Shown: positions 18,702-32,436 of the stretch, one piece after another
How the letters are laid out: each line of letters begins with the position of its first letter
Numbering within the stretch: position 1 is the first letter of the stretch
Source of the DNA: Klebsiella pneumoniae
GTDB lineage: Bacteria; Myxococcota_A; UBA796; SXON01
Reading direction: 5' to 3'
Length of the DNA stretch: 64,000 nucleotides
Assembly (NCBI GenBank): GCA_945862325.1
Contig: CAMAXZ010000019.1
Span: 6,205 to 70,204, forward strand
The notes under the pieces: generated by a model
Seen by the model: the letters and a program-made list of their open reading frames with translations, nothing else
Told to the model about the DNA's origin: nothing
Databases searched by the model: none
Program-made: the position numbers and the translations under genes

Positions 18702-21257
18702 TCAGCAGCCATTCGGCAGGCCCGGAGTGCCACGATCGCCGCTGCCGTAGGTGGTGGTGGCGGTGCACCACCCCGAGGCGCTGTTGTTGCCCGTCGCGCT
18801 GAACGACGTGCTCCGCAGCTCCGCCGAGTAGCCGCTGCCGCCGAAGAAGCTCGACAGGTAGTACACCTCGTCGACGGTGACCCCGGCCACGGCCAGGATG
18901 ATCTCGTCGTCGGCGCCGTTGCCCATCTGGAGGCTGTTGCCGTACCCGTAGTCGGACGCGATGCCACCGTTGGCGGAGCTCGACGCGTTGCGCGTGAGCA
19001 CCGCGTACTCTCCGGCCCCGACGTACACGTCGCCTGACACCGTGGTCGTGTCGGTACCCGCGTCGCGGAGGGTCCAACCACAGAGGTTGATGTCGGTCGA
19101 CGACGCGTTGTAGACCTCGAAGTACTCGCCGTTCTCGTCGAGCACCGCGCTCGGATCGCGCATGATCTCGGTGATGAACAGCTCGCCGGCGGTCATGACG
19201 CCCTCGTCGCAGACGCCGTCGCAGTCGTTGTCCGCGCCGTCGCGCGCCTCGGTGCCGTCGGGGTTGGCGGTGTCGTCGGTGTCGTCGCAGTCGTCCGCGA
19301 GGGCGTACCCGTCCTCGTCCTGATCGTCGTCGTTTCCGTCACAGTCTTCGTCGACGCCGTTGTACCAGACCTCGGCCGCCGCGGGGTTGACGGACGCGTC
19401 GGTGTCGTCGCAGTCGCCCGCGTAGGTGTACCCGTCTTCGTCGCGATCGGTGTCGTTCCCGTCGCAGTCTTCGTCCACGCCGTTGTACCAGACCTCGGCG
19501 GCGCCGGGGTTCTGGCTGGCGTCGAGATCGTCGCAGTCGACGGTGTAGTCGTAGCCGTCTTCGTCGCGGTCGTCGTCGTTCCCGTCGCAGTCTTCGTCGG
19601 TGCCGTTGTACCAGATCTCGGTGGCGCCTGGGTTTTCATCCGCGTCGGTGTCGTCGCAGTCGACGGTGTACGCGTATCCGTCTTCGTCGCGATCGGTGTC
19701 GTTGCCGTCGCAATCTTCGTCTGTCCCGTTGTACCAGATCTCGGCGGCGCCGGGGTTCGTGTCGTCGTCGGTGTCGTCGCAGTCGACGCCGTACGCGTAC
19801 CCGTCTTCGTCGCGATCGTCGTCGTTTCCGTCGCAGTCTTCGTCGGTGCCGTTGTACCAGACCTCGGTGGCGCTCGGGTTGACGGACGCGTTGGTGTCGT
19901 CGCAGTCGACGGTGTAATCGAACCCGTCCGAGTCCTGATCGTCGTCCGTACCGTCACAGTCCTCGTCGGTACCGTTGTACCAGACCTCGGCGGCGCTCGG
20001 ATTGACGGATGCGTCGGTGTCGTCGCAGTCGACGGAGTAGTCGAAGCCGTCTTCGTCGCGATCGGTGTCGTTCCCGTCGCAGTTTTCGTCGGTGCCGTTG
20101 TACCAGATCTCCGCGGCGTCCGGGTTCACGGTGGCGGCGGTGTCGTTGCAGTCGACGCTCACGGCGAAGCCGTCACCGTCTTGATCGTCGTCGTTTCCGT
20201 CGCAGTCCTGGTCGACGCCGTCGTACCAGACCTCGGCGGCGTCGGGGCTGCGCGAGGCGTCGTCGTCGTCGCAGTCCTCCGCGAAGTCGACGCCGTCGCC
20301 GTCGCGGTCGTCGTCGCGACCATCACAGTCTTCGTCGACCCCGTTGTACCAGACCTCGGTGGCGTCGGGGCGGATGTCCGCGTCCGTGTCGTCGCAGTCG
20401 CCGTCGATCTCCGCCCAACCGTCCCCGTCGTCGTCCACGAGCGCGGTCCCGTCGTCCACGAGGTCGTTGCAATCGTTGTCCGCGCCGTCCGCCAGCTCGG
20501 GGGCGCCCGGGTACGTGTCCGGGTTCGCGTCGTCGCAATCGCCGTCGCACGCCGTCACGCCGTCTTCGTCGAGATCGTCGTCGTCGCAGCCCTCCACGGT
20601 CACGCGCGACCCACACACGTCCACCCGGCCGCCGGGGTCCGTCACGGTGAGCGTGAGTGTGTGGGCACCCGGGGTGAGGGTGAGGTCGAAGCCCGACACC
20701 GCGCCGGAGGAGGTTGGCGACCCGGCCCAGAGCTGACCGTCGACGTCACTCGACAGCACGCCGGTCAGCGCCGCCGGATCCGACTCGGCGTCGGTCGCGG
20801 TCGCTTCGAACGGAATGACGCCCTCCACGCCCCAGACGCTCCCGTCCTCGGGGCTGTCGATCGAGCACGCCGGCGGCGAGTTCGTCGTCGGCGACACGGT
20901 GATCGTGGCCTCGCCGGACTGTCCGCCCGGATCGACCACGGTCACGCTGAGGGTGTGCGCGCCGCCCGCGCTCAGGGACACGGTCAGCCCGGCGTTCCCG
21001 CCCTCGCAGCTCTCGGGCACGCCCGTGCCCTCCCACAAGAGGCCGTCCACGGAGCTCTGGAACACCATCGCGAGGGCGCCGAGATCCTCCTCGTCGCTGA
21101 CCTGCGCACACAGGACCAGCGGCTCCCCCGCGTCGAACGTCGCGCCGTCGAGGGGCGACACGATGTCCACCTGGGGGGGGCGATCCGCCTTGCCGAGCGT
21201 CGCGTCGTTGCACCCGAGAGCGCCGAGCGCGAGGAGGGGGACGAGGGGGCGCGTCAT
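18702..21257 (-). CDS. Lipoprotein with Ig-like domains, 11 putative metal-binding (MopE-related) repeats and C-terminal lamin-tail-like domain
   Basis: LGALGC lipobox; two Ig-like units; DxDxDG..DCDD..P...E.WYNG.DEDCDG repeats; ITEIMRDP..GEYFEVYN..GTPGLPN. Confidence 0.85.
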   Translation of the reverse strand: MTRPLVPLLALGALGCNDATLGKADRPPQVDIVSPLDGATFDAGEPLVLCAQVSDEEDLGALAMVFQSSVDGLLWEGTGVPESCEGGNAGLTVSLSAGGAHTLSVTVVDPGGQSGEATITVSPTTNSPPACSIDSPEDGSVWGVEGVIPFEATATDAESDPAALTGVLSSDVDGQLWAGSPTSSGAVSGFDLTLTPGAHTLTLTVTDPGGRVDVCGSRVTVEGCDDDDLDEDGVTACDGDCDDANPDTYPGAPELADGADNDCNDLVDDGTALVDDDGDGWAEIDGDCDDTDADIRPDATEVWYNGVDEDCDGRDDDRDGDGVDFAEDCDDDDASRSPDAAEVWYDGVDQDCDGNDDDQDGDGFAVSVDCNDTAATVNPDAAEIWYNGTDENCDGNDTDRDEDGFDYSVDCDDTDASVNPSAAEVWYNGTDEDCDGTDDDQDSDGFDYTVDCDDTNASVNPSATEVWYNGTDEDCDGNDDDRDEDGYAYGVDCDDTDDDTNPGAAEIWYNGTDEDCDGNDTDRDEDGYAYTVDCDDTDADENPGATEIWYNGTDEDCDGNDDDRDEDGYDYTVDCDDLDASQNPGAAEVWYNGVDEDCDGNDTDRDEDGYTYAGDCDDTDASVNPAAAEVWYNGVDEDCDGNDDDQDEDGYALADDCDDTDDTANPDGTEARDGADNDCDGVCDEGVMTAGELFITEIMRDPSAVLDENGEYFEVYNASSTDINLCGWTLRDAGTDTTTVSGDVYVGAGEYAVLTRNASSSANGGIASDYGYGNSLQMGNGADDEIILAVAGVTVDEVYYLSSFFGGSGYSAELRSTSFSATGNNSASGWCTATTTYGSGDRGTPGLPNGC
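19200..20580 (-). repeat. Intragenic tandem repeat, about 123 nt (41 aa) x 11
   Basis: Units such as DRDEDGFDYSVDCDDTDASVNPSAAEVWYNGTDEDCDGTDD; synonymous and amino-acid variation between copies. Confidence 0.9.
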
Positions 21258-21359
21258 GAAGGCTCCGTGCGGCTGGCGGGATAGCCGAGGATCGGGCAGG
21301 TCGCGAGCGACGGTTCCGTGTCGAGGGCTCCGCGAACGGGTTCGCGGTACGATGCGCGC

Positions 21360-22430
21360 ATGGACGCGAAGCCAACGTCGTGGTGGGCCAGGTGGTTCGG
21401 GTGGGGCGGGCGCGGGTCGACGCCTCCGGCGTTGGCGACGCCCCGTGCCACGCCGCCCACCCCGCGCGTGGTCGGGCCGCTGCCGACGCCGGCGGATCTC
21501 GCGGCGCTCCCGTCGCGCACGCCGGTCGCGGCGCCGTGGCACGGGGTCGAGGCGCCGCCGTCGTCGGACGCCGACGTGGTGCGGACCGCGCTCCTCCAGC
21601 GGCTCTACCACGAGCTCGATCGGGCGCCGTCGGAGGGAGATCGCACCTTTCTGAACCGCGTCGTCCGCGACTGCGGGGCCGCGCGGCTCGAGCTGCCGCT
21701 GTTCCCGGACGCGGCGATCCGGCTCGATCGACTGCTCCGCGCGGGCGATCCGCCCGTGTCGGAGGTCGCGGCGCTGGTTCGTCGCGAGACGGATCTCGTC
21801 CGCCGCGTCTGGCAGCACGCCTCCGGCGCGGCGTACCGCGGACAACCCCCGTCCACCCTCGATCAAGCCATCGTGCGCGTCGGCTTCGAGTCGCTCTGGC
21901 GCATCGGCATGAGCGCGTGCGTCAACGGGCCCGTGTTCCGGGTGCGCGGGTTCCAGGACCAGGCGAACCGCGCCCGCGCCTGCGCCATCGTCGCGAGCGA
22001 GGTCGCGCACACCGTCGGCGCCTGGCATCCGGACGCGTACCTCTCGGGCCTGCTCCACGGCGTGGGCAAGCTGGTGTTCTACCGATGCGCCGTCGTCAAG
22101 CCGCCGGCGCCGGTGCCGGACCCCGCGCGCGTCGAGCGCCTCGCGCACGCGCTGCACCCCTGGGTGGGGGTGCTCGTCGCCGACGCCTGGGGCTTCTCGC
22201 CGGGCGTCGGGGCCGGCATCGCGTACTGGCCGAACGTGGAGGCGTGCCCCGAGGCCTGGCGGGACGTGGCGCGGGTCGTTCGCGTGGCGAGCATCGCGGC
22301 GGAGACGACCGCCGAGGCGCGCGCCGGGCGGGACTGCGGCGGCCTCGCCGCCCTCGCGGAGATCGAGGGGGTCGACCCGGCGAAGGTGCTCTCCCTGGCG
22401 GACGCGGCGTGGGCGGGGGTCGCGCGCTGA
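21360..22430 (+). CDS. HDOD domain protein
   Basis: LELPLFPDAA, TLDQAIVRVG, YLSGLLHGVGKL, ADAWGF. Confidence 0.85.
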   Translation: MDAKPTSWWARWFGWGGRGSTPPALATPRATPPTPRVVGPLPTPADLAALPSRTPVAAPWHGVEAPPSSDADVVRTALLQRLYHELDRAPSEGDRTFLNRVVRDCGAARLELPLFPDAAIRLDRLLRAGDPPVSEVAALVRRETDLVRRVWQHASGAAYRGQPPSTLDQAIVRVGFESLWRIGMSACVNGPVFRVRGFQDQANRARACAIVASEVAHTVGAWHPDAYLSGLLHGVGKLVFYRCAVVKPPAPVPDPARVERLAHALHPWVGVLVADAWGFSPGVGAGIAYWPNVEACPEAWRDVARVVRVASIAAETTAEARAGRDCGGLAALAEIEGVDPAKVLSLADAAWAGVAR

Positions 22431-24969: not shown

Positions 24970-26412
24970 ATGCCGCTGAACGGCGCCGATCCGGCGCGGC
25001 TCGCGGTCGTCGACATCGGGTCGAACACCGCCAGCCTCGCGGTCTACGCCGCCAGCCGGGCCGGCTCGATCGACCGCGTGGCGGACCGGTCGGAGCCGCT
25101 CCGGCTGATCCGCCGCCTCGGCGCCGACGGTCGCTTCCCGGCCGCCGCGATCGACCGCACGCTCGACACCGTCGCCGGCTTCGTCGACGTCGCGAAGGCC
25201 CACGGCGCGAGCACGATCGAGGTGGTGGCCACGTCCGCCGTGCGCGACGCCCGCAACGGCGAGGAGCTCGCGCAGCGCTTCCGATCGCGGCTCGGCCTGC
25301 GCATGCGCGTGCTCGACGGCCCCGCCGAAGGCGTGTGCGCGGCGACCAGCTCGGTCAACACCCTCCCGCTCGACGACGGCTTCGTGATCGACCTCGGCGG
25401 CGGCTCCCTGCAGATCGTCGAGGTCAAGGATCGCCGGGTCCTGCGCTCGGTGTCCCTGCCGCTCGGCGCGCTCCGTCTCACCGACCAGTTCAAGACCGAA
25501 GGCCTGCCGTCGCCCGCGCAGCTCACCGCCCTTCGTCGCCACGTGCTCGAGCAGCTGCGCAGCGTGCCGTGGTTCCACCGCAGCGGCACGCTCGTGGGCG
25601 TCGGCGGCACGATCCGCGCCATCGCCAAGACCGAGCGCCGGGATCGCCTGTGGCCGATCCGCCACGGGCATGGCTACCGGCTCACGGACGACGCCGTGGA
25701 GACCGTCTGGGAGCTCGTCAGTCGGACCGACGCGCTGCGGCGCAAAGAGATCCCGGGGCTGAGCCCACACCGCGTGGAGGTCATCGTCGCGGGGACCCTC
25801 GTGGTCAACTGGGCGATGCGGGTCAGCGGCTTCGCGGAGCTGCGCACGTCCAGCTACGGCGTGCGCGAGGGCGTGGCCCTCCAGCGCTTGTTCGGCGGCG
25901 AGGAGCCGATGGTGCCGGACCGCCGGCGCGCCGGGCTGCTCGGCCGCTTCCCGGGTTCGCCCGACGAACACACGCGCGCCGGAGAGGTCGCCGCTGCCGC
26001 CGGCCGCCTGTTCGACGTGGTGGCGCCCACGGTGGATCTGCCGGCGTCCTTGCGCGCGGCCACGGTGTCGGCGGCTTACATCCGCGCCCTGCCGCCGCTC
26101 CCGTCGCGGTCGGACCCCGTCGAGGTGCTGCTCGACGCTCCCTTCCAGGGACACTGGCAGGAAGACACGCTCGTCGTCGCCGACCTCCTGTGTGGTGTAC
26201 CCAGGTTCCATCTCGATCCATGGCCGCACCAGCGCCTGCGGGCGCTCCTCGACGTGGCCGCGGGCGTGACCGGTGAGCTTCGGGCGCAGGTCCGGGAAGG
26301 CACCGTGATCGTCCAGGGCGCGCGATGCGCGGACGACGTGGGCCGCCGCTTCGCGGCGGCCTTCGGACGGGCGCTCGTGCTCTCCTCGCAAGGCGGGGCG
26401 ACGATCGGCTAA
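24970..26412 (+). CDS. ppx: Ppx/GppA-family exopolyphosphatase
   Basis: VVDIGSNT, ATSAVRDARN, IDLGGGSLQ, SLPLGA, GVGGTIR, GVREG; the C-terminal HD-like part looks degenerate. Confidence 0.88.
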   Translation: MPLNGADPARLAVVDIGSNTASLAVYAASRAGSIDRVADRSEPLRLIRRLGADGRFPAAAIDRTLDTVAGFVDVAKAHGASTIEVVATSAVRDARNGEELAQRFRSRLGLRMRVLDGPAEGVCAATSSVNTLPLDDGFVIDLGGGSLQIVEVKDRRVLRSVSLPLGALRLTDQFKTEGLPSPAQLTALRRHVLEQLRSVPWFHRSGTLVGVGGTIRAIAKTERRDRLWPIRHGHGYRLTDDAVETVWELVSRTDALRRKEIPGLSPHRVEVIVAGTLVVNWAMRVSGFAELRTSSYGVREGVALQRLFGGEEPMVPDRRRAGLLGRFPGSPDEHTRAGEVAAAAGRLFDVVAPTVDLPASLRAATVSAAYIRALPPLPSRSDPVEVLLDAPFQGHWQEDTLVVADLLCGVPRFHLDPWPHQRLRALLDVAAGVTGELRAQVREGTVIVQGARCADDVGRRFAAAFGRALVLSSQGGATIG

Positions 26413-26422
26413 GGTGCGCTCC

Positions 26423-26773
26423 GTGCGTCGCCTCACCACCGTCCTCGCCGCCCTCTACGTGGTGCTCGCCACGTTGTCGGCCTCGGTGAACGGCTGGATC
26501 TGCCGCGCGGAGCTCGGTCGTACGCCATGCGCGTGCGACCACTCGGCCGGATTGACCGACGACGACTGCTGCACCCGGCAGTCCGACGACGCGGCCACGG
26601 TCGCGCCGATCGTCCTCGTCGCCCCGTCCGTGCGTGCGCTGGCGCCTGCGCCCGTGGCGCGGTGGGTGCGTGCCGTGCGCGACCCGTCGCCGTCGCCCGC
26701 GGTCGCCGGCCGTCACGAGCCGCGCGCCCCGCCCGTCCCCCGCTTCCTGGCGCTCCGAACCTTGTTGATCTGA
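26423..26773 (+). CDS. Cys/His-rich leader ORF with C-terminal RAPP motif (DUF2946/CruR-like architecture)
   Basis: N-terminal TM/signal, WIC..PCACDH..DDCC, C-terminal HEPRAPP(12 aa)stop; GTG 7 nt after TAAGGT (alternative GTG at 26414). Confidence 0.7.
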   Translation: MRRLTTVLAALYVVLATLSASVNGWICRAELGRTPCACDHSAGLTDDDCCTRQSDDAATVAPIVLVAPSVRALAPAPVARWVRAVRDPSPSPAVAGRHEPRAPPVPRFLALRTLLI

Positions 26774-26840
26774 GCCTCGGGCTCGACGTGTGTCCGCCGT
26801 CGGCGTGAGCCGAACCGCACCCCGTCCCTCCGAGGTTCCT

Positions 26841-28037
26841 GTGTCAACCTGGATTTGTCTTGTTCTTTTCTGCGTCGCCGCGGCGCCTCTCACGCGCGCG
26901 GAGCTCGTGCGCGCCGTCCTCGACGCCCACCCGGAGGCACGTGTCGCCGCGATCGCCCGCGACGCCGCTGCCCTCGACGCCGCGGCGCCGAGCGTCGTGC
27001 CGCCCCTCATGGTCGGGTTGTCCGCCGCGCCGGTGTCCCTCGGGCAACACGCGCCGGGGGTCGCGGTGGACCTCGCGTGGGAGCTCCCGACCGGTGGCAT
27101 GCGTCGCGCCTCCACGGCGGTCGCCTCCGCGGCGGTCGAAGGCGCGTCCGCGGAGGTCGCGATGCGGCGGCTCGCGCTCGCGGCGCGGACGTCGGTCGCG
27201 CTCGACGCCGTCCGCCGATCCGACGCCGCGCTCGCCGTCCTCACGCACCACCGTGACGCCCTCGTGGAGGCCGCGCAGGCCGTCGAACGGCGCGTCGCCG
27301 CAGGGCTCGTCGGGCCCGACGGCGGGCCGATGGCGCGGATGGCGGTGCTCGAAGCCGAGGAGCGCCTCGTCGCGGCGCGCGCGCGCCGCGTGGTCGCGCG
27401 GGCGGAGCTGGGGTCGCTGCTCGTCGGCACGGGGATCGACCTCGAACGCGCGCTGTCGGCCGTCGACCTCGGCGGGTCCGGCCCGTCGTCCGTCGGTGGG
27501 GGCGAGGTGGCGATGGCCGCCGCCGACCTCGCGATGGCCGAGGGGGACGTGCGGATGGCGGTCGCGGACGGGCGGCCGATGATCGAGCTCATGAGCGGGT
27601 ATTCGACGATGTGGGCGGACGTCGGCCACCGGTGGATGGTCGGGGTCGGCGTCGAGGTCCCGCTGGACGGAGCGACCCGGAAGGCCCGGGTCGACGCCGC
27701 GGCGGCGCGCGCGCGCGCCGCCGCCGCGCAGCTCACGAACGAGGAACGACGCCGAGATCTCGCCGTGGCGACGGCGCGCGCGATGGTGGAGGAGGCCGCG
27801 GCGATGGCGCACCTGATGGAGCACGAGATGGCGCCGCTCGCCGCGGAGCGCGCGCGGCTCGCGCGCACGGCGTGGGAAGCGGGCCGCGGGGCGTACGCCG
27901 ATTGGCTGGCCGCGGAGAACGACCGGGTCCACGTGGCGCTTCGCGTGGCGGACGCGGCGCTCGACCGCGCCCGCGCCGAGGCGATGCTGGCGATGGCCGA
28001 GGGGCGCCTCGCCGGCGTCGACGGGGGTTCCCGATGA
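26841..28037 (+). CDS. TolC/CusC-family outer membrane efflux protein
   Basis: Signal peptide, LTRAELVRAVLDAHPE, two OEP-like repeats (DLAWELP / VGVEVPL), first gene of an RND operon. Confidence 0.8.
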   Translation: MSTWICLVLFCVAAAPLTRAELVRAVLDAHPEARVAAIARDAAALDAAAPSVVPPLMVGLSAAPVSLGQHAPGVAVDLAWELPTGGMRRASTAVASAAVEGASAEVAMRRLALAARTSVALDAVRRSDAALAVLTHHRDALVEAAQAVERRVAAGLVGPDGGPMARMAVLEAEERLVAARARRVVARAELGSLLVGTGIDLERALSAVDLGGSGPSSVGGGEVAMAAADLAMAEGDVRMAVADGRPMIELMSGYSTMWADVGHRWMVGVGVEVPLDGATRKARVDAAAARARAAAAQLTNEERRRDLAVATARAMVEEAAAMAHLMEHEMAPLAAERARLARTAWEAGRGAYADWLAAENDRVHVALRVADAALDRARAEAMLAMAEGRLAGVDGGSR

Positions 28038-29188
28038 TCCGTCCGACCGTCGCCGCGCTCGTCCTGGCCGTGCTCTGCGCGCCGATGCTCCCGGCCTGCA
28101 CGCTCGCTCCGGGTTCGCCGGAGGCGCCCGCGGCGTCGCCGCACGCCTGCCCGATGCACCCCGCGGTGCGCGCCGACGGCCCCGGGCGCTGCCCTCTGTG
28201 CGGCATGGATCTCGTCCCCGTCGCTTCGACCGACGACGGCAGCGTGGGGATCTCCGACGCGCGTCGCGCGCGGTGGGGCATCCGGACCGTGGCCGCCGAA
28301 CAGCGGCGGGTCACGCGGACGGTGCGCCTCGCGGGGGTCGTGGGGTGGGATCTCAGCCGCCAGCGCGACGTCGTGGTGCGCGCGACGGGCGTGGTCGCCG
28401 GCCTGCGCGTGGCCCAGGGCGCGGCGGTGGCGCGCGGCGAGGTGCTCTTCGAGCTGCAGAGCCCGGAGATCCGGGCAGCACAACAGGACTTCCTCGCGGT
28501 GGACCCGGCCGGCGCGGCCAGCGCGCGGGCCCGCCTCGTCTCCCTCGGCCTCGCCGAGGCGCAGATCGACGCGGTCACGGCGGCCCGCGCGCCGCTCGGA
28601 GGCGTGCCCGTGCTCGCCCCGGTCGCCGGGATCGTGGCGGAGCTCGGCGTGGTCGAGGGGAGCCCGGTCGGGCCGTGGACCGCCCCGGCGCGCATCGCCG
28701 GCGCGGGCGCGGTGTGGGTCGACGTGACCGCGTCCGCAGCCGACGCGGCGGCCCTGCCGCCCGGAGCGCGCGCCACCGTCAACCTGCGTTCGCGGTCCGG
28801 AGAGGCCTGGCATGGGGTCGTCCGGGCCTTGCCGAGCCCCGACGCCGCCACGTCGCGCCTCCGCGTCGTCGTCGAGGACGACGGGGGCCCGCCCCTGCTC
28901 CCGGGAGAGGTCGCGACCGTCACCGTCGAGGTGGACCGCGGGGAGCTCCTCGTCGTCCCTCGCGACGCGGTCGTGTGGACCGGGGCGCGGCGGGTGGTGT
29001 TCGTCGATGTCGGCGAAGGTGCGCTTCGACCGCGGGAGGTCCTCGCCGAGGCCCCCATCGGCGAGGTCGTCCCGATCCGCGGCGGCCTGGCCGCCGGAGA
29101 GCGGGTCGTGCGCGACGGGGCGTTCCTCGTCGCGGCCGAGAGCCGGGTCCGTGATCCGGACGCGTGGGATCGAGGGGTGACCCCATGA
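28034..29188 (+). CDS. cusB: CusB-like RND periplasmic adaptor with heavy-metal-binding domain
   Basis: CPMHP..GPGRCPLCGMDLVP; APVAGIV; VPRDAVV; GLAAGERVV. Confidence 0.85.
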   Translation: MIRPTVAALVLAVLCAPMLPACTLAPGSPEAPAASPHACPMHPAVRADGPGRCPLCGMDLVPVASTDDGSVGISDARRARWGIRTVAAEQRRVTRTVRLAGVVGWDLSRQRDVVVRATGVVAGLRVAQGAAVARGEVLFELQSPEIRAAQQDFLAVDPAGAASARARLVSLGLAEAQIDAVTAARAPLGGVPVLAPVAGIVAELGVVEGSPVGPWTAPARIAGAGAVWVDVTASAADAAALPPGARATVNLRSRSGEAWHGVVRALPSPDAATSRLRVVVEDDGGPPLLPGEVATVTVEVDRGELLVVPRDAVVWTGARRVVFVDVGEGALRPREVLAEAPIGEVVPIRGGLAAGERVVRDGAFLVAAESRVRDPDAWDRGVTP

Positions 29189-32100
29189 TCGCGGCGATCA
29201 TCGCGTGGTCCGCGCGTCACCGCGCGCTGGTCTTCGCGCTCGCGGCCGTAGGGAGCGTGCTCGGGGTGTTCGCGGCGCGTCACGCGCCGCTCGACGCCTT
29301 GCCGGACATCTCCGACACGCAGGTGGTCGTCGCGACGGAGTGGATGGGGAGGAGCCCGGATCTCGTCGACGATCAGGTCACGTGGCCGCTGTCCGCCGCG
29401 CTCCTCGGCACCGAGGGCGTGCGCGTCGTACGCGGGCAGTCGATGTTCGGGATGAGCTTCGTCTACGCGATCTTCGCGGACGCGACGCCTTCGGAGGACG
29501 CGCGCGCGCGCGTGGCGGCGGCGATCGCACGCGTGTCCCTCCCCGACGGCGTGCTCCCGGCCCTCGGGCCCGACGCGAGCGGCGTGGGGTGGGTCTACCA
29601 GTACGCGCTCGTGGACGACACCAACCGCTTGAGCCCCGCCGATCTCCGCGATCTGCAGGACTCCGTGGTTCGCCCGGCGCTCCAGGCGGTGGAGGGGGTC
29701 GCCGAGGTCGCGAGCGTGGGCGGACACGTCCGGCAGGTCGAGGTGTCCGTCGACCCCGCCTTGTTGCGCGCGTACGGCGTGAGCTTCGCGCAGGTGGCGC
29801 GCGCGGTGGCTCGGGCGAACGTCGCCGCGGGGGGCGGCGCGCTCGACATCGCCGGCCACGAGTGGGTGATCCGGAGCCGCGGAGAGGTCCGGAGCCTCGA
29901 CGCGCTGGTCGACGCGCCCATCCCCGGGGCGGTCGGTGGTGCGGGGCGAGGGCCCCGAAGCGGCGGGAGCCCGGTGGCGGAGGCGTCCAGCGACGGGATG
30001 GGCGGGATGTCCGAGGGCGCGTCCGCGGCGACGGCGGTGCCCGCAGGCGGTCCCGAGCGCGCGCGCGCGCGTGTGCTCCGGGTCGGCGACGTCGCGGACG
30101 TCGCGTGGGCGCCCACGCCACGGCGGGGCGTCGGCGATCTCGACGGGCGCGGCGAGGCCCCGAGCGGCATCGTCGTCGCGCGCCAGAAGACCAACGCCCT
30201 GGACGTGATCACCCGCGCCCGTGGCGCGCTCGACGCCGTGGCGCCGGCGCTCCCCGAGGGCGTCCGCATCGTACCGGTCTACGACCGATCGACCTTGATC
30301 CTCGGCACCCTCGGCACCCTCGCCGAGTCGCTCGGCGAGGAGCTCCTCGCGGTGTCCCTCGTGGTGCTCCTGTTCCTCGGCCACCTGCGCACCGCGCTCG
30401 TCCCGGTCATCGTGCTGCCGGTGGCGGTCGCGGTCGCGTTCCTACCGATGTACCTGCAAGGGTTGTCGATCGACGTGATGTCGGTCGCGGGGATCGCGGT
30501 CGCCGTCGGGGCGATGGTCGACGCGAGCATGATCTGCGTGGAGAACGTGCACGTCCGCCTCGCGCGCTGGGAGGCCGAGGGCGCGCGGGGCACCCGCACC
30601 GACGTGATCATCGGCGCGATGCAGGAGGTCGGCCCGAGCGCGTTCGGGTCGTTGGTCGTCATCGCCGTGTCGTTCATTCCGGTCTTCGCGCTCGAAGCCG
30701 AGGAAGGACGTCTCTTCGCGCCGCTCGCGTGGACGAAGACCTGGAGCATGGTCGCCGCCGCGCTGCTGTCGATCACCCTCGCCCCGGCGCTCGCGGTCGC
30801 GCTGATCACCCGGCGCGGTCGGGCCGAGGAGGAGGATCCGGTCTCCCGCGTCCTCGGCCGCATCTACGCGCCGATCGTGCGTGTGGTCGTGCGTTTCCGC
30901 TTCGCCGTGGTCGGCGTCGCGGCGGCCGTCGTCGTCGTGACGATCCCGGTGCTCCTCGCCATCCCGTCCGAGTTCATGCCGCCGCTCCACGAGGGCAGCC
31001 TGCTCTACATGCCGAGCGCGCCCCCAGGCATCTCCGAGTCGCAGGCGGTCGACGTACTCCAGAGGATCGACGCGGCGATCGCGTCGGTCCCCGAGGTCGC
31101 TTCGGTGTACGGCAAGATGGGGAGGGCCGACACCGCGACCGACCCGGCGCCGCTCGGCATGGCCGAGGTGGTGATCACGCTCCACCCCGAGCACACGTGG
31201 CGCGCGGGGATGTCGTGGGACGGCCTCGTCGCCGAGCTCGACGCGCGCCTCGACGTGCCGGGCTTGCCGAACGCCTGGTGGATGCCGGTGCGCACCCGCC
31301 TCGAGATGTTGTCGACCGGGCTCCGCAGCCCCCTCGGGATCAAGCTTTACGGTCCCGATCTCGCGAGCGTCGAGCGCGCGGCGCGCACCCTCGAGGGGGC
31401 GCTGCGCACCGTCCCGGGCACCCGCAGCGTCGTCGCCGAGCGCCTCGTCGGCGCGAACACCCTCGACGTCGACGTGCGCCGCGTCGAGGCCGCGGCGCTC
31501 GGCGTGAGCGCCGCCGATGTCTCCGAGGCGCTCGAGGGCGCGTTCGCCGGCGCCCGCGTCGGCGAGTGGGTCGACGGGCGCTCCCGTTTCGACGTGGCCG
31601 TGCGCTACGCGAAGGACTTCCGTACGTCCCCGGAGGATCTCTCCGCGATCCTCGTCGACCGCGCGGGCGGCGGCCCCGTCCCCCTCGGAGACGTGGCGGA
31701 CGTTCGCGCCGGGTCCGGGCCGGAGATGGTGCGCAGCGAGGGGGGCTCCCTCGTGGCGCACGTCCTGATCGATCCAGGGCAAACGCCCGTCGACCGCTGG
31801 GTGGAGGACGCCGACGCGGCGATCGCCGCGGCCGGGTTGGACGCTCCGGGGGCGCTCGGCGCCGGGGTGCGTCGCGCGTGGGCCGGGACGTTCGAGTCGT
31901 ACGTCCGAGCGAGCGGGCGGCTCGCGTGGATGGTCCCCCTGGTCCTCGCGATCATCGCGATCGTGGTCCGGGCGAACACCGGGGGATGGGTACCGACGGC
32001 GATCGTGCTGCTGTCGGTGCCGTTCTCGCTGGTGGGCGCGGTGTGGCTGCTGTGGGCGCTCGACTACCGGATGAGCGTCGCGGTGTGGGTCGGCATGATC

Positions 32101-32436
32101 GCGTTGGCGGCCTTGGACGCCGAGACGGGGGTCGTGATGCTGCTGTATCTGCGCCTCGCCTGGGCGAGCCGAACCCGGGGCGCGCCCGCGGTCGACGCCA
32201 TCGTGGCGGGCTCGGCGCGGCGCCTGCGCCCCAAGCTGATGACCGTGCTCACGGATCTCGCGGGCTTCGTCCCCGTGTTTCTCGTGGACGGCCCTGGTGC
32301 CGACGTCTTGCGGCGGATCGCGGCTCCGATGGTCGGCGGCCTCGTGTCCAGCTTCTTGCTTGAGCTTCTGGTCTACCCGGCGATCTTCGCGATGTGGGCC
32401 CCCTCGTCGGACGCCGATCGGCCCGACGAGGGGTGA
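29185..32436 (+). CDS. cusA: CusA/SilA-type Cu(I)/Ag(I) RND efflux transporter
   Basis: LDALPDISDTQVVV, GPDASGVGWVYQY, GAMVDA, EGSLLYMP, TDPAPLGM, RLEMLSTG (three Met equivalent to the CusA triad), RLRPKLMT. Confidence 0.92.
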   Translation: MIAAIIAWSARHRALVFALAAVGSVLGVFAARHAPLDALPDISDTQVVVATEWMGRSPDLVDDQVTWPLSAALLGTEGVRVVRGQSMFGMSFVYAIFADATPSEDARARVAAAIARVSLPDGVLPALGPDASGVGWVYQYALVDDTNRLSPADLRDLQDSVVRPALQAVEGVAEVASVGGHVRQVEVSVDPALLRAYGVSFAQVARAVARANVAAGGGALDIAGHEWVIRSRGEVRSLDALVDAPIPGAVGGAGRGPRSGGSPVAEASSDGMGGMSEGASAATAVPAGGPERARARVLRVGDVADVAWAPTPRRGVGDLDGRGEAPSGIVVARQKTNALDVITRARGALDAVAPALPEGVRIVPVYDRSTLILGTLGTLAESLGEELLAVSLVVLLFLGHLRTALVPVIVLPVAVAVAFLPMYLQGLSIDVMSVAGIAVAVGAMVDASMICVENVHVRLARWEAEGARGTRTDVIIGAMQEVGPSAFGSLVVIAVSFIPVFALEAEEGRLFAPLAWTKTWSMVAAALLSITLAPALAVALITRRGRAEEEDPVSRVLGRIYAPIVRVVVRFRFAVVGVAAAVVVVTIPVLLAIPSEFMPPLHEGSLLYMPSAPPGISESQAVDVLQRIDAAIASVPEVASVYGKMGRADTATDPAPLGMAEVVITLHPEHTWRAGMSWDGLVAELDARLDVPGLPNAWWMPVRTRLEMLSTGLRSPLGIKLYGPDLASVERAARTLEGALRTVPGTRSVVAERLVGANTLDVDVRRVEAAALGVSAADVSEALEGAFAGARVGEWVDGRSRFDVAVRYAKDFRTSPEDLSAILVDRAGGGPVPLGDVADVRAGSGPEMVRSEGGSLVAHVLIDPGQTPVDRWVEDADAAIAAAGLDAPGALGAGVRRAWAGTFESYVRASGRLAWMVPLVLAIIAIVVRANTGGWVPTAIVLLSVPFSLVGAVWLLWALDYRMSVAVWVGMIALAALDAETGVVMLLYLRLAWASRTRGAPAVDAIVAGSARRLRPKLMTVLTDLAGFVPVFLVDGPGADVLRRIAAPMVGGLVSSFLLELLVYPAIFAMWAPSSDADRPDEG

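Follow-up and report, generated by a model that had tools for sequence, protein, structure and literature searches.

How might a heavy-metal efflux pump be controlled when no familiar metal-responsive regulator is apparent beside its genes? The question is raised by a 64,000-nucleotide stretch of bacterial DNA (contig CAMAXZ010000019.1 of GenBank assembly GCA_945862325.1, positions 6,205 to 70,204 of the forward strand), here called the window, whose own numbering is used throughout. It carries an operon for an outer-membrane efflux protein (OEP), a CusB-like membrane-fusion protein (MFP) and a CusA/CzcA-family pump of the resistance-nodulation-division (RND) type, directly preceded by a short open reading frame (ORF). 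A sequence-only reading had proposed that this leader ORF encodes a metal-sensing peptide which arrests the ribosome at a RAPP motif while a complementary (anti-SD) segment hides the OEP gene's Shine-Dalgarno (SD) sequence. Our analysis supports the leader ORF as a real, conserved small gene heading the efflux operon, and by its design it most likely ranks as a lineage-specific relative of CruR, CutF and SilD.

The leader gene and its family

The leader ORF (Table 1) encodes the database protein P0004, of 116 residues; an alternative GTG at 26414 would add three codons and give 119. Its in-frame G+C content at third codon positions (GC3) is 0.91, compared with 0.92-0.94 for the ppx, OEP and cusA genes (0.94 for cusA), in a genome of 74% G+C, and synonymous changes are present among the six leader loci whose codons were compared. 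The N-terminal export signal was called from the alignments, in which homologues read SAWA|VP, and from a helix over residues 2-25 (predicted local distance difference test, pLDDT, 86-95) in the AlphaFold2 (AF2) model, not from a signal-peptide predictor. It is followed by a Cys/His cluster, a Pro/Ala-rich linker, the RAPP motif and a short tail. The mature peptide is predicted to be largely disordered (pLDDT 63.6 in the AF2 model, 0.51 in the Atlas model). Coordinates, coding-type GC3 and alignments agree with the sequence-only description of a 116-residue ORF with an export helix, a Cys/His cluster and RAPP 12 codons before the stop.

Table 1. Features of the leader gene, the intergenic RNA and the efflux operon in the window
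Feature	Position	Strand	Remarks
-10-like hexamer TAAGGT	26410..26415	+	7 nt before GTG 26423; no SD between
Leader ORF	26423..26773	+	116 aa + TGA (26771-26773); start GTG 26423
N-terminal export signal or anchor	26423..26485	+	RR, hydrophobic core, SAS; from alignments
Cys/His cluster C27, C36-x-C38-x-H40, C49-C50	26501..26572	+	Invariant alignment columns; putative metal site
RAPP arrest-type motif	26723..26734	+	12 codons before TGA; RAPP/RGPP in relatives
Conserved tail VPRFLALRTLLI	26735..26770	+	Between RAPP and TGA; alignment and codon comparison
Anti-SD arm GAGCCUCGGG	26772..26781	+	Overlaps stop codon; from folds and covariation
Nearly invariant block GGCTCGACGTGTGTCCGCCG	26780..26799	+	20 nt just 3' of anti-SD; possible 6-bp hairpin
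SD arm UCCGAGGUUC	26829..26838	+	GAGG at 26832-26835; 5 nt before GTG 26841
Outer-membrane efflux protein, OEP/TolC family	26841..28037	+	PF02321, 1.1e-26
CusB-like membrane-fusion lipoprotein (MFP) with HMBD	28034..29188	+	ATG overlaps OEP stop (ATGA)
CusA/CzcA-family heavy-metal RND pump	29164..32436	+	TIGR00914, 845 bits; motif AVGAMVDASMICVEN in transmembrane segment 4 (TM4)

Relatives of the leader are few. A single-sequence word search recovered the leader protein alone (1 of 113 candidates), and an exhaustive phmmer search of 1.84 billion representatives gave eight hits at E<=0.001, seven of which belong to the family, the query included. P0011, a repeat protein of 526 residues (E = 1.7e-4), was rejected as a member, as its match covers residues 21-56 only. 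A profile built from 12 sequences extended the set to 22 clusters, all without Pfam domains; the relatives are named only 'hypothetical protein', one of them from a 'Deltaproteobacteria bacterium'. NCBIfam assigns no family to the leader ORF, and a weak DUF6153 match (E = 0.0024, below the cut-off), seen in 2 of 12 members, was put down to low-complexity similarity in Pro/Ala. Among 154 genomes of the order, the profile matches seven, namely the genome of the window and 6 of the 12 genomes of one other genus of the same family, and it matches none of those from the six other families. The leader family is therefore real but narrow, belonging to one uncultured 'Deltaproteobacteria' lineage. A public record that carries one of the family loci (L111, of the G119 type) is labelled as a Klebsiella pneumoniae metagenome-assembled genome; its sequence is that of the high-G+C 'Deltaproteobacteria' family, so that the record is probably mislabelled.

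RAPP and RGPP, written jointly as R[AG]PP below, are two robust arrest cores refractory to elongation factor P (EF-P) (PMC12992588; for the arrest property of RAPP see also PMC9426467). Among 23 distinct family proteins, the Cys cluster and the tail xPRFLxxR[TS]LL[IV] are kept in every one, and R[AG]PP in 20, at 12 residues from the C-terminus in six and at 13 in fourteen. The spacing from CC to the Arg of the motif is 49-54 residues. R[AG]PP thus stays at set distances from the Cys cluster and from the stop, among neighbouring residues that vary. A distant eighth locus (G115) has RGPP followed by 16 residues ending in WLI, and like all seven close loci it uses a TGA stop codon. The sequence-only reading had staked its case on conservation of RAPP and the Cys cluster in homologues, and this expectation is borne out. 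The three remaining proteins carry GASS, RSPP or VRPP at the place of the motif. The GASS variant, of the G119 type, occurs on three contigs. These forms (L020 of G119, 1501-1869; proteins P0017, P0021 and P0024) might serve as natural 'motif knock-outs'.

Codon comparison of six loci separates the tail from the linker. In the tail, nonsynonymous differences are the lowest (0.26 of pairwise comparisons) and synonymous ones the highest (0.36), whereas the linker has 0.64 and 0.20, respectively. Few nonsynonymous and many synonymous changes argue that the tail is selected as a peptide and not merely as RNA. Elsewhere in the proteome RGPP is avoided: in a crude, GC3-filtered ORF set of the window's genome it was observed twice against 17.2 expected (bias 0.12), and in the same set the bias is 0.80 for RAPP versus 1.71 for AAPP. 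A second small ORF with RAPP in this genome (C6:70244-70759, minus strand) was set aside as it looks like an antisense artefact.

A predicted helix between the stop codon and the Shine-Dalgarno sequence

The anti-SD arm pairs with the SD arm of the OEP gene within the minimum free energy (MFE) fold. This is the 9-bp pairing over the stop codon foreseen in the sequence-only reading, longer by one G-U pair. The helix closes a stem-loop that spans the spacer between the two genes, 67 nt in the window, and none of 200 shuffled sequences folds as well. The same pairing between stop-codon region and OEP SD region appears in the MFE fold of all seven close loci (spacers of 67-76 nt). The stem-loop z-scores are -3.74 (window), -4.14, -3.26, -3.06, -1.25, 0.11 and 0.45, and the stem-loop clearly beats shuffled sequences in four of the loci. 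The distant eighth locus has the same helix as GAGCUCC:GGAGUUC (z = -4.02). With the seven loci aligned to a covariance model, an alignment that is thereby fitted to the model, 89.1% of cells pair versus 82.0 +/- 1.7 in shuffles (0/500) and 34-55% with slid partners, and both sides change in four of the eight pairs of the helix. In two loci (G012 and L150) the SD is displaced and the anti-SD altered to match (GACCUC:GAGGUC). Folding and covariation, proposed earlier as a check, predict the helix in all eight loci, with compensatory changes.

The sequence-only reading also pointed to a second anti-SD segment, GAACCTTG (26757-26764), within the tail codons. It can indeed pair with the SD region in the window (-11.0 kcal/mol, versus -16.6 for the stop segment), but across the seven loci the tail-codon duplex (-5.9 to -11.0 kcal/mol) is always weaker than the stop-region duplex (-10.6 to -18.7) and at best partly conserved.

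How ribosome position would affect the helix was estimated by constrained folding. The SD is unpaired with a mean probability of <=0.085 in the free RNA, <=0.094 when RAPP is occupied by a ribosome and 0.05-0.49 when the ribosome stands at the stop. For a ribosome stalled with its P site at 26729, the anti-SD arm starts at +43 (26772), and the ribosome reaches to about +15 to +18. Since the arm lies beyond this reach and the SD stays paired in the folds, a stall at RAPP cannot open the helix. According to the same modelling, it would be opened by a ribosome in the last leader codons, and the layout is compatible with a 'stall = OFF, completion = ON' scheme.

Next to the anti-SD arm, the 20-nt block 26780-26799 is nearly invariant in the seven loci though the proteins are only 33-46% identical. 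It may form a 6-bp hairpin with a GUGU loop, the helix of which never varies, and no Rfam family matches the block or the locus. The GTG inside it (26790) was considered as the true OEP start and rejected, being in frame in the window and in G007 and out of frame in G016 and G012. An alignment-based search for related loci gave 123 pattern matches and no relative. The block as a search pattern occurs at at least 120 loci in genome contigs, where 4 of the 120 scanned were true and already known, the remainder being chance matches in G+C-rich DNA. A tighter pattern, applied to metagenome contigs, led to one new locus (L150).

Promoter, operon and neighbourhood

A TANNN[TA] hexamer lies 6-9 nt upstream of the leader start codon in 7/7 loci (TAAGGT, TATGGA, TATAGA, TACACT, TATAGT, TATACT and TATTCA), with no SD between the two, compared with a background rate of 7.6e-4 per position in the window. 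A strict scan for sigma-70 promoters and terminators returned no promoter and no intrinsic terminator at the locus. The earlier suggestion that TAAGGT marks a promoter of the leader's own thus stands as regards the conserved hexamer and finds no echo in the strict scan. On balance the hexamers support an own promoter, as judged by sequence, and a -10-like element so near a start codon without an SD suggests that the leader mRNA may be leaderless.

The OEP start was fixed by comparing the seven loci. The OEP stop overlaps the MFP start (28034-28037), and the end of the MFP gene overlaps a possible CusA start (29164-29188); from this arrangement the three pump genes look translationally coupled. 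The TM4 motif of the pump presumably resembles the Cu/Ag type. Upstream of the leader, a Ppx/GppA gene ends at 26412. The statement that no cusRS or cueR regulator is nearby agrees with the absence of two-component and MerR regulators among 15 window ORFs compared with Pfam (about 16.2-38.9 kb; the scan is not exhaustive). The leader gene is followed by an OEP gene in six of the seven other loci; the seventh is truncated by a contig end. About 4 kb upstream of the operon, on the minus strand, a long ORF (18702-22157) combines a lamin-tail and a Big_7 domain with 11 putative metal-binding repeats of the 'Cu-binding_MopE' type; an HDOD-domain ORF on the opposite strand overlaps it and makes its limits ambiguous.

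Possible mechanism and alternatives

The gene, its conservation, the motif, the covarying helix and the geometry are observed here, and they lend themselves to the following model. The leader ORF would act in cis on the OEP-MFP-CusA operon as the gene of a metal-sensing leader peptide. It would have its own promoter and a probably leaderless mRNA, and its product would be exported co-translationally. Arrest of the ribosome at R[AG]PP would come when the Cys/His cluster, some 50-65 residues earlier in the chain, has just emerged from the exit tunnel or translocon. Stopped about 27 nt short of the stop:SD stem-loop, the ribosome would leave the helix closed and pump translation off. Cu or Ag bound to the Cys cluster would relieve the arrest, as reported for CruR, and the released ribosome would translate the last 12 codons and unwind the anti-SD at the stop, freeing the SD for translation of the pump genes, with OEP, MFP and RND coupled through overlapping stops and starts. 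We favour this model, in which release activates the pump, while giving it somewhat less than an even chance.

Supporting it are the fixed distances from motif to stop and from Cys cluster to motif, the alternation of RAPP with RGPP, the avoidance of RGPP, the lack of a two-component or MerR regulator in the part of the window scanned, and the SilD family, which is independent and has the same layout. A number of points weigh against it. To our knowledge, in every characterised bacterial relative (SecM, CutF, CruR) stalling means ON. Copper prolongs the CutF stall and does not relieve it (PMC9973294; bioRxiv 10.1101/2025.02.05.636593). The three family proteins without R[AG]PP nevertheless keep the Cys cluster, the tail and the helix, and RAPP is only mildly under-represented in the genome. 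The stem-loop z-scores are not significant in three of seven loci (0.11, -1.25 and 0.45), and the SD is only partly freed in the folds with a ribosome at the stop. We infer arrest, metal binding and polarity alike. Moreover, no segment is under stronger peptide-level selection than the 12-residue tail, which would be translated only once the stall is over, and the model leaves this unexplained. The tail directs attention to the polarity of CutF, in which stalling would switch the pump on: the arrest peptide would be the entire conserved C-terminal block, R[AG]PP and tail together (16-17 residues), a pause in the last codons or at UGA would cover the anti-SD and open the SD, and periplasmic metal would prolong the pause. 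We consider this unlikely, yet the tail is kept in all 23 proteins, those without R[AG]PP included, and a ribosome at the stop removes the main helix in the constrained folds. At termination, R[AG]PP would sit 13-16 residues from the peptidyl-transferase centre, close to the tunnel constriction. TGA in the seven close loci and the distant eighth would suit such a pause, but it is expected anyway in a genome of 74% G+C, and the tail is unlike any known arrest sequence. The SilD family likewise has a conserved tail of 10-12 residues between Pro motif and stop, and the polarity itself has been demonstrated for CutF (PMC9973294); the CruR arrest, however, occurs with the P and A sites on the Pro codons of RAPP (PMC12992588), which here stand 12 codons before the stop.

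A further alternative has no regulated arrest: the leader might be a small exported, Cys-rich, metal-binding accessory protein or chaperone of the pump, similar to SilD, with a helix that only couples OEP translation and an R[AG]PP that is neutral or a pause for targeting. Conservation of the tail and the Cys cluster as protein would be expected of it, as would the three natural variants without the motif and the absence of strong RAPP avoidance in the proteome, and SilD is annotated only as a conserved protein of unassigned function (PMC7563307). A mature part predicted to be largely disordered fits such a protein poorly, and so does a motif that in 20 of 23 proteins holds its distances from Cys cluster and stop while its neighbours vary, and that alternates only with the other robust arrest core (PMC12992588); in addition, rapid degradation and action in cis are reported for CutF and CruR (PMC9973294, PMC9426467). 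Taking both sides into account, we judge a leader without regulated arrest improbable. Attenuation as in CruR, where arrested and queued ribosomes would shield a C-rich Rho utilisation (rut) site or block Rho, and where release or an untranslated leader would let Rho terminate before or within the OEP gene, seems to us very unlikely. It draws support from the excess of C over G in the 3' half of the ORF and the spacer (GC skew -0.12 to -0.145 over 26550-26999), which resembles the region mapped as rut in cruR (PMC9426467), and from the lack of an intrinsic terminator in the strict scan of the locus, but the spacer is short (67-76 nt) and structured, the CruR sensor polarity would have metal switch an exporter off, and the conserved, covarying helix that sequesters the SD would be left unexplained. 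The models diverge in what they predict for a change of the motif to AAPP, which would make the pump constitutively ON if release activates it and OFF if the stall melts the helix.

Comparison with known leader peptides

Nascent-peptide control of copper export is a young field: only CruR and CutF are characterised, and their sensor polarities are opposite. Leaders in front of RND efflux pumps are the commonest genomic context, without a worked example. Taken together, the CruR and CutF papers establish this kind of leader, and the general idea of CutF-like leaders before RND outer-membrane genes is already in print (PMC9973294).

CruR (Bp2923, DUF2946) of Bordetella pertussis is the obvious reference for the motif. 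There, arrest is relieved by copper, with Rho termination of an uptake gene as the result; a spacing of 45 residues between Cys motif and RAPP is functionally important, and the peptide is rapidly degraded and acts in cis (PMC9426467). Mapping of the arrest places the two RAPP proline codons in the P and A sites (PMC12992588). The leader described here shares with CruR the RAPP motif, a Cys motif whose distance from RAPP is conserved (45 residues in CruR, 49-54 here), the export signal, the place as first gene of a metal operon, a 3' region richer in C than in G and, in our favoured model, a sensor polarity in which metal relieves the arrest. It differs in that RAPP lies 3 residues from the C-terminus in CruR and 12 or 13 here, and in having CxC plus CC in place of CXXC. 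CruR further has a 162-nt spacer, and its output depends on Rho termination of an uptake gene.

Membership of DUF2946, the CruR/CutF family of Pfam, did not survive closer inspection. Neither the leader ORF nor any of the 12 family members compared matches PF11162 at E<=1 (gathering score 23.7 bits), and in a genome-wide scan the DUF2946 match is on another contig only. In place of CXXC (or CxxxC), the family has C-x8-C-x-C-x-H ... CC, invariant in 23/23, and its spacing to the motif, 49-54 versus about 45, is conserved but different. The motif is not within a few residues of the end, whereas in DUF2946-like proteins from the same phylum only 2-6 residues follow RAPP; hhalign against eight of these proteins aligned 13 columns around RAPP with a probability of 2.4%. 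In the Atlas features the nearest cluster is unnamed (0.97), and a cluster that is 23% DUF2946 lies at 0.94, a lead only. It may be added that the DUF2946-like ORFs of the phylum (L151-L163) also include endings with KxSPP variants (..APKTSPPA, ..APKASPPV). The locus also shows that whole lineages of such candidate leaders escape Pfam DUF2946.

Beyond CruR, small secretory proteins encoded upstream of metal genes are enriched in R[AG]PP close to their C-termini (PMC12992588), and the leader, a small secretory protein with R[AG]PP near its C-terminus upstream of a co-directional gene, has the sequence hallmarks of RAPP/RGPP arrest peptides. ApdA, ApdP and the upstream ORFs of Streptomyces lividans share this arrangement with respect to the genes they regulate. 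Where their signal is known, they monitor Sec/YidC. For none of them is a conserved 12-residue post-motif tail described in the part of PMC12992588 used here.

CutF of Rhodobacter capsulatus is closer in the layout of its RNA. It has a PPP motif, its EF-P-dependent stall is prolonged by copper and melts a stem-loop over the cutO SD, and it too is rapidly degraded and acts in cis (PMC9973294; bioRxiv 10.1101/2025.02.05.636593). As here, a small exported protein with a Cys motif and a C-terminal Pro motif is followed by a stem-loop that shields the SD of the next gene, a copper-detoxification target. Among 5,334 CutF-like proteins, which include SilD, CusD and CzcI by name, the commonest downstream neighbour is an RND outer-membrane protein (PMC9973294), as it is at our locus. 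The leader passes the filters of that set (fewer than 150 residues, PP within the last 15, a signal peptide, a same-strand neighbour; PMC9973294), with its 116 residues, PP at -14/-13, a hydrophobic N-terminus with RR and an AxA-like site, and an OEP gene 67 nt downstream. The difference lies in the stall. In CutF it is the stall itself, prolonged by copper, that melts the stem-loop (ON), whereas here 12-13 codons separate the motif from the stop and about 43 nt separate it from the helix, too far for a stall at it to melt the helix.

The closest match in design, without detectable sequence similarity (BLASTP E = 0.93), is SilD/CusD of Cupriavidus metallidurans CH34 (silDCBA/cusDCBAF), an annotated conserved protein of uncharacterised function (PMC7563307) that has been placed in the CutF-like network (PMC9973294). 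Its small gene comes first, directly before the OEP-MFP-RND genes of a Cu/Ag efflux operon, and homologues are present on megaplasmids of Ralstonia and Cupriavidus. We compared silD of pMOL30 with three homologues (L164:10024-10419, minus strand, plus L166, L167 and L165; motifs RAPP, RGPP, PPP or ASPP). All the elements of the layout recur in SilD. A hydrophobic N-terminal signal and a Cys/His cluster are followed by a Pro motif, which reads RAPP in Ralstonia, RGPP in C. campinensis and PRPPP in CH34, then by a hydrophobic, conserved tail 10-12 residues long, an anti-SD next to the stop and the OEP-MFP-RND genes. The C-termini read ...PRPPPRPLAILHCCFRI in CH34, ...ARAPPPPLSILHCCFRT in Ralstonia, ...ARGPPPLNILHCSFQT in C. 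campinensis and ...ASPPHAILHCCFRT in Sphaerotilus. In Ralstonia and C. campinensis, CCUCC directly 3' of the silD stop closes a stem-loop on the silC SD (z = -4.37 and -2.61), and in CH34 the silD stop region pairs with part of the SD (z = -1.57). The tail is PLxILHCCFR[TI] in SilD versus PRFLxLRTLLI here, and the Cys pattern and the phylum are different. Within the literature searched, PMC9973294 alone mentions SilD alongside ribosome stalling and RND pumps, and the main-text parts of it considered give no account of this combination of motif, tail and anti-SD.

The leader locus and the silD loci thus have in common a compact layout of arrest motif, fixed tail of 12-13 codons and stop-overlapping anti-SD. 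It could be speculated that the leader family and the sequence-unrelated SilD family of Burkholderiales share an arrest-leader design for metal exporters that is distinct, has so far gone undescribed and is activated by release, a generalisation that we think rather doubtful. If it were true, the R[AG]PP site would keep a distance of 10-13 codons from a downstream anti-SD beginning at the stop or immediately after it, arrest would silence the pump, and metal-triggered release would turn it on by termination-coupled unmasking of the SD. The conserved post-arrest tail would then be a second functional element of the nascent chain, and the polarity would be opposite to that of SecM, MifM, VemP, TnaC, CruR and CutF.

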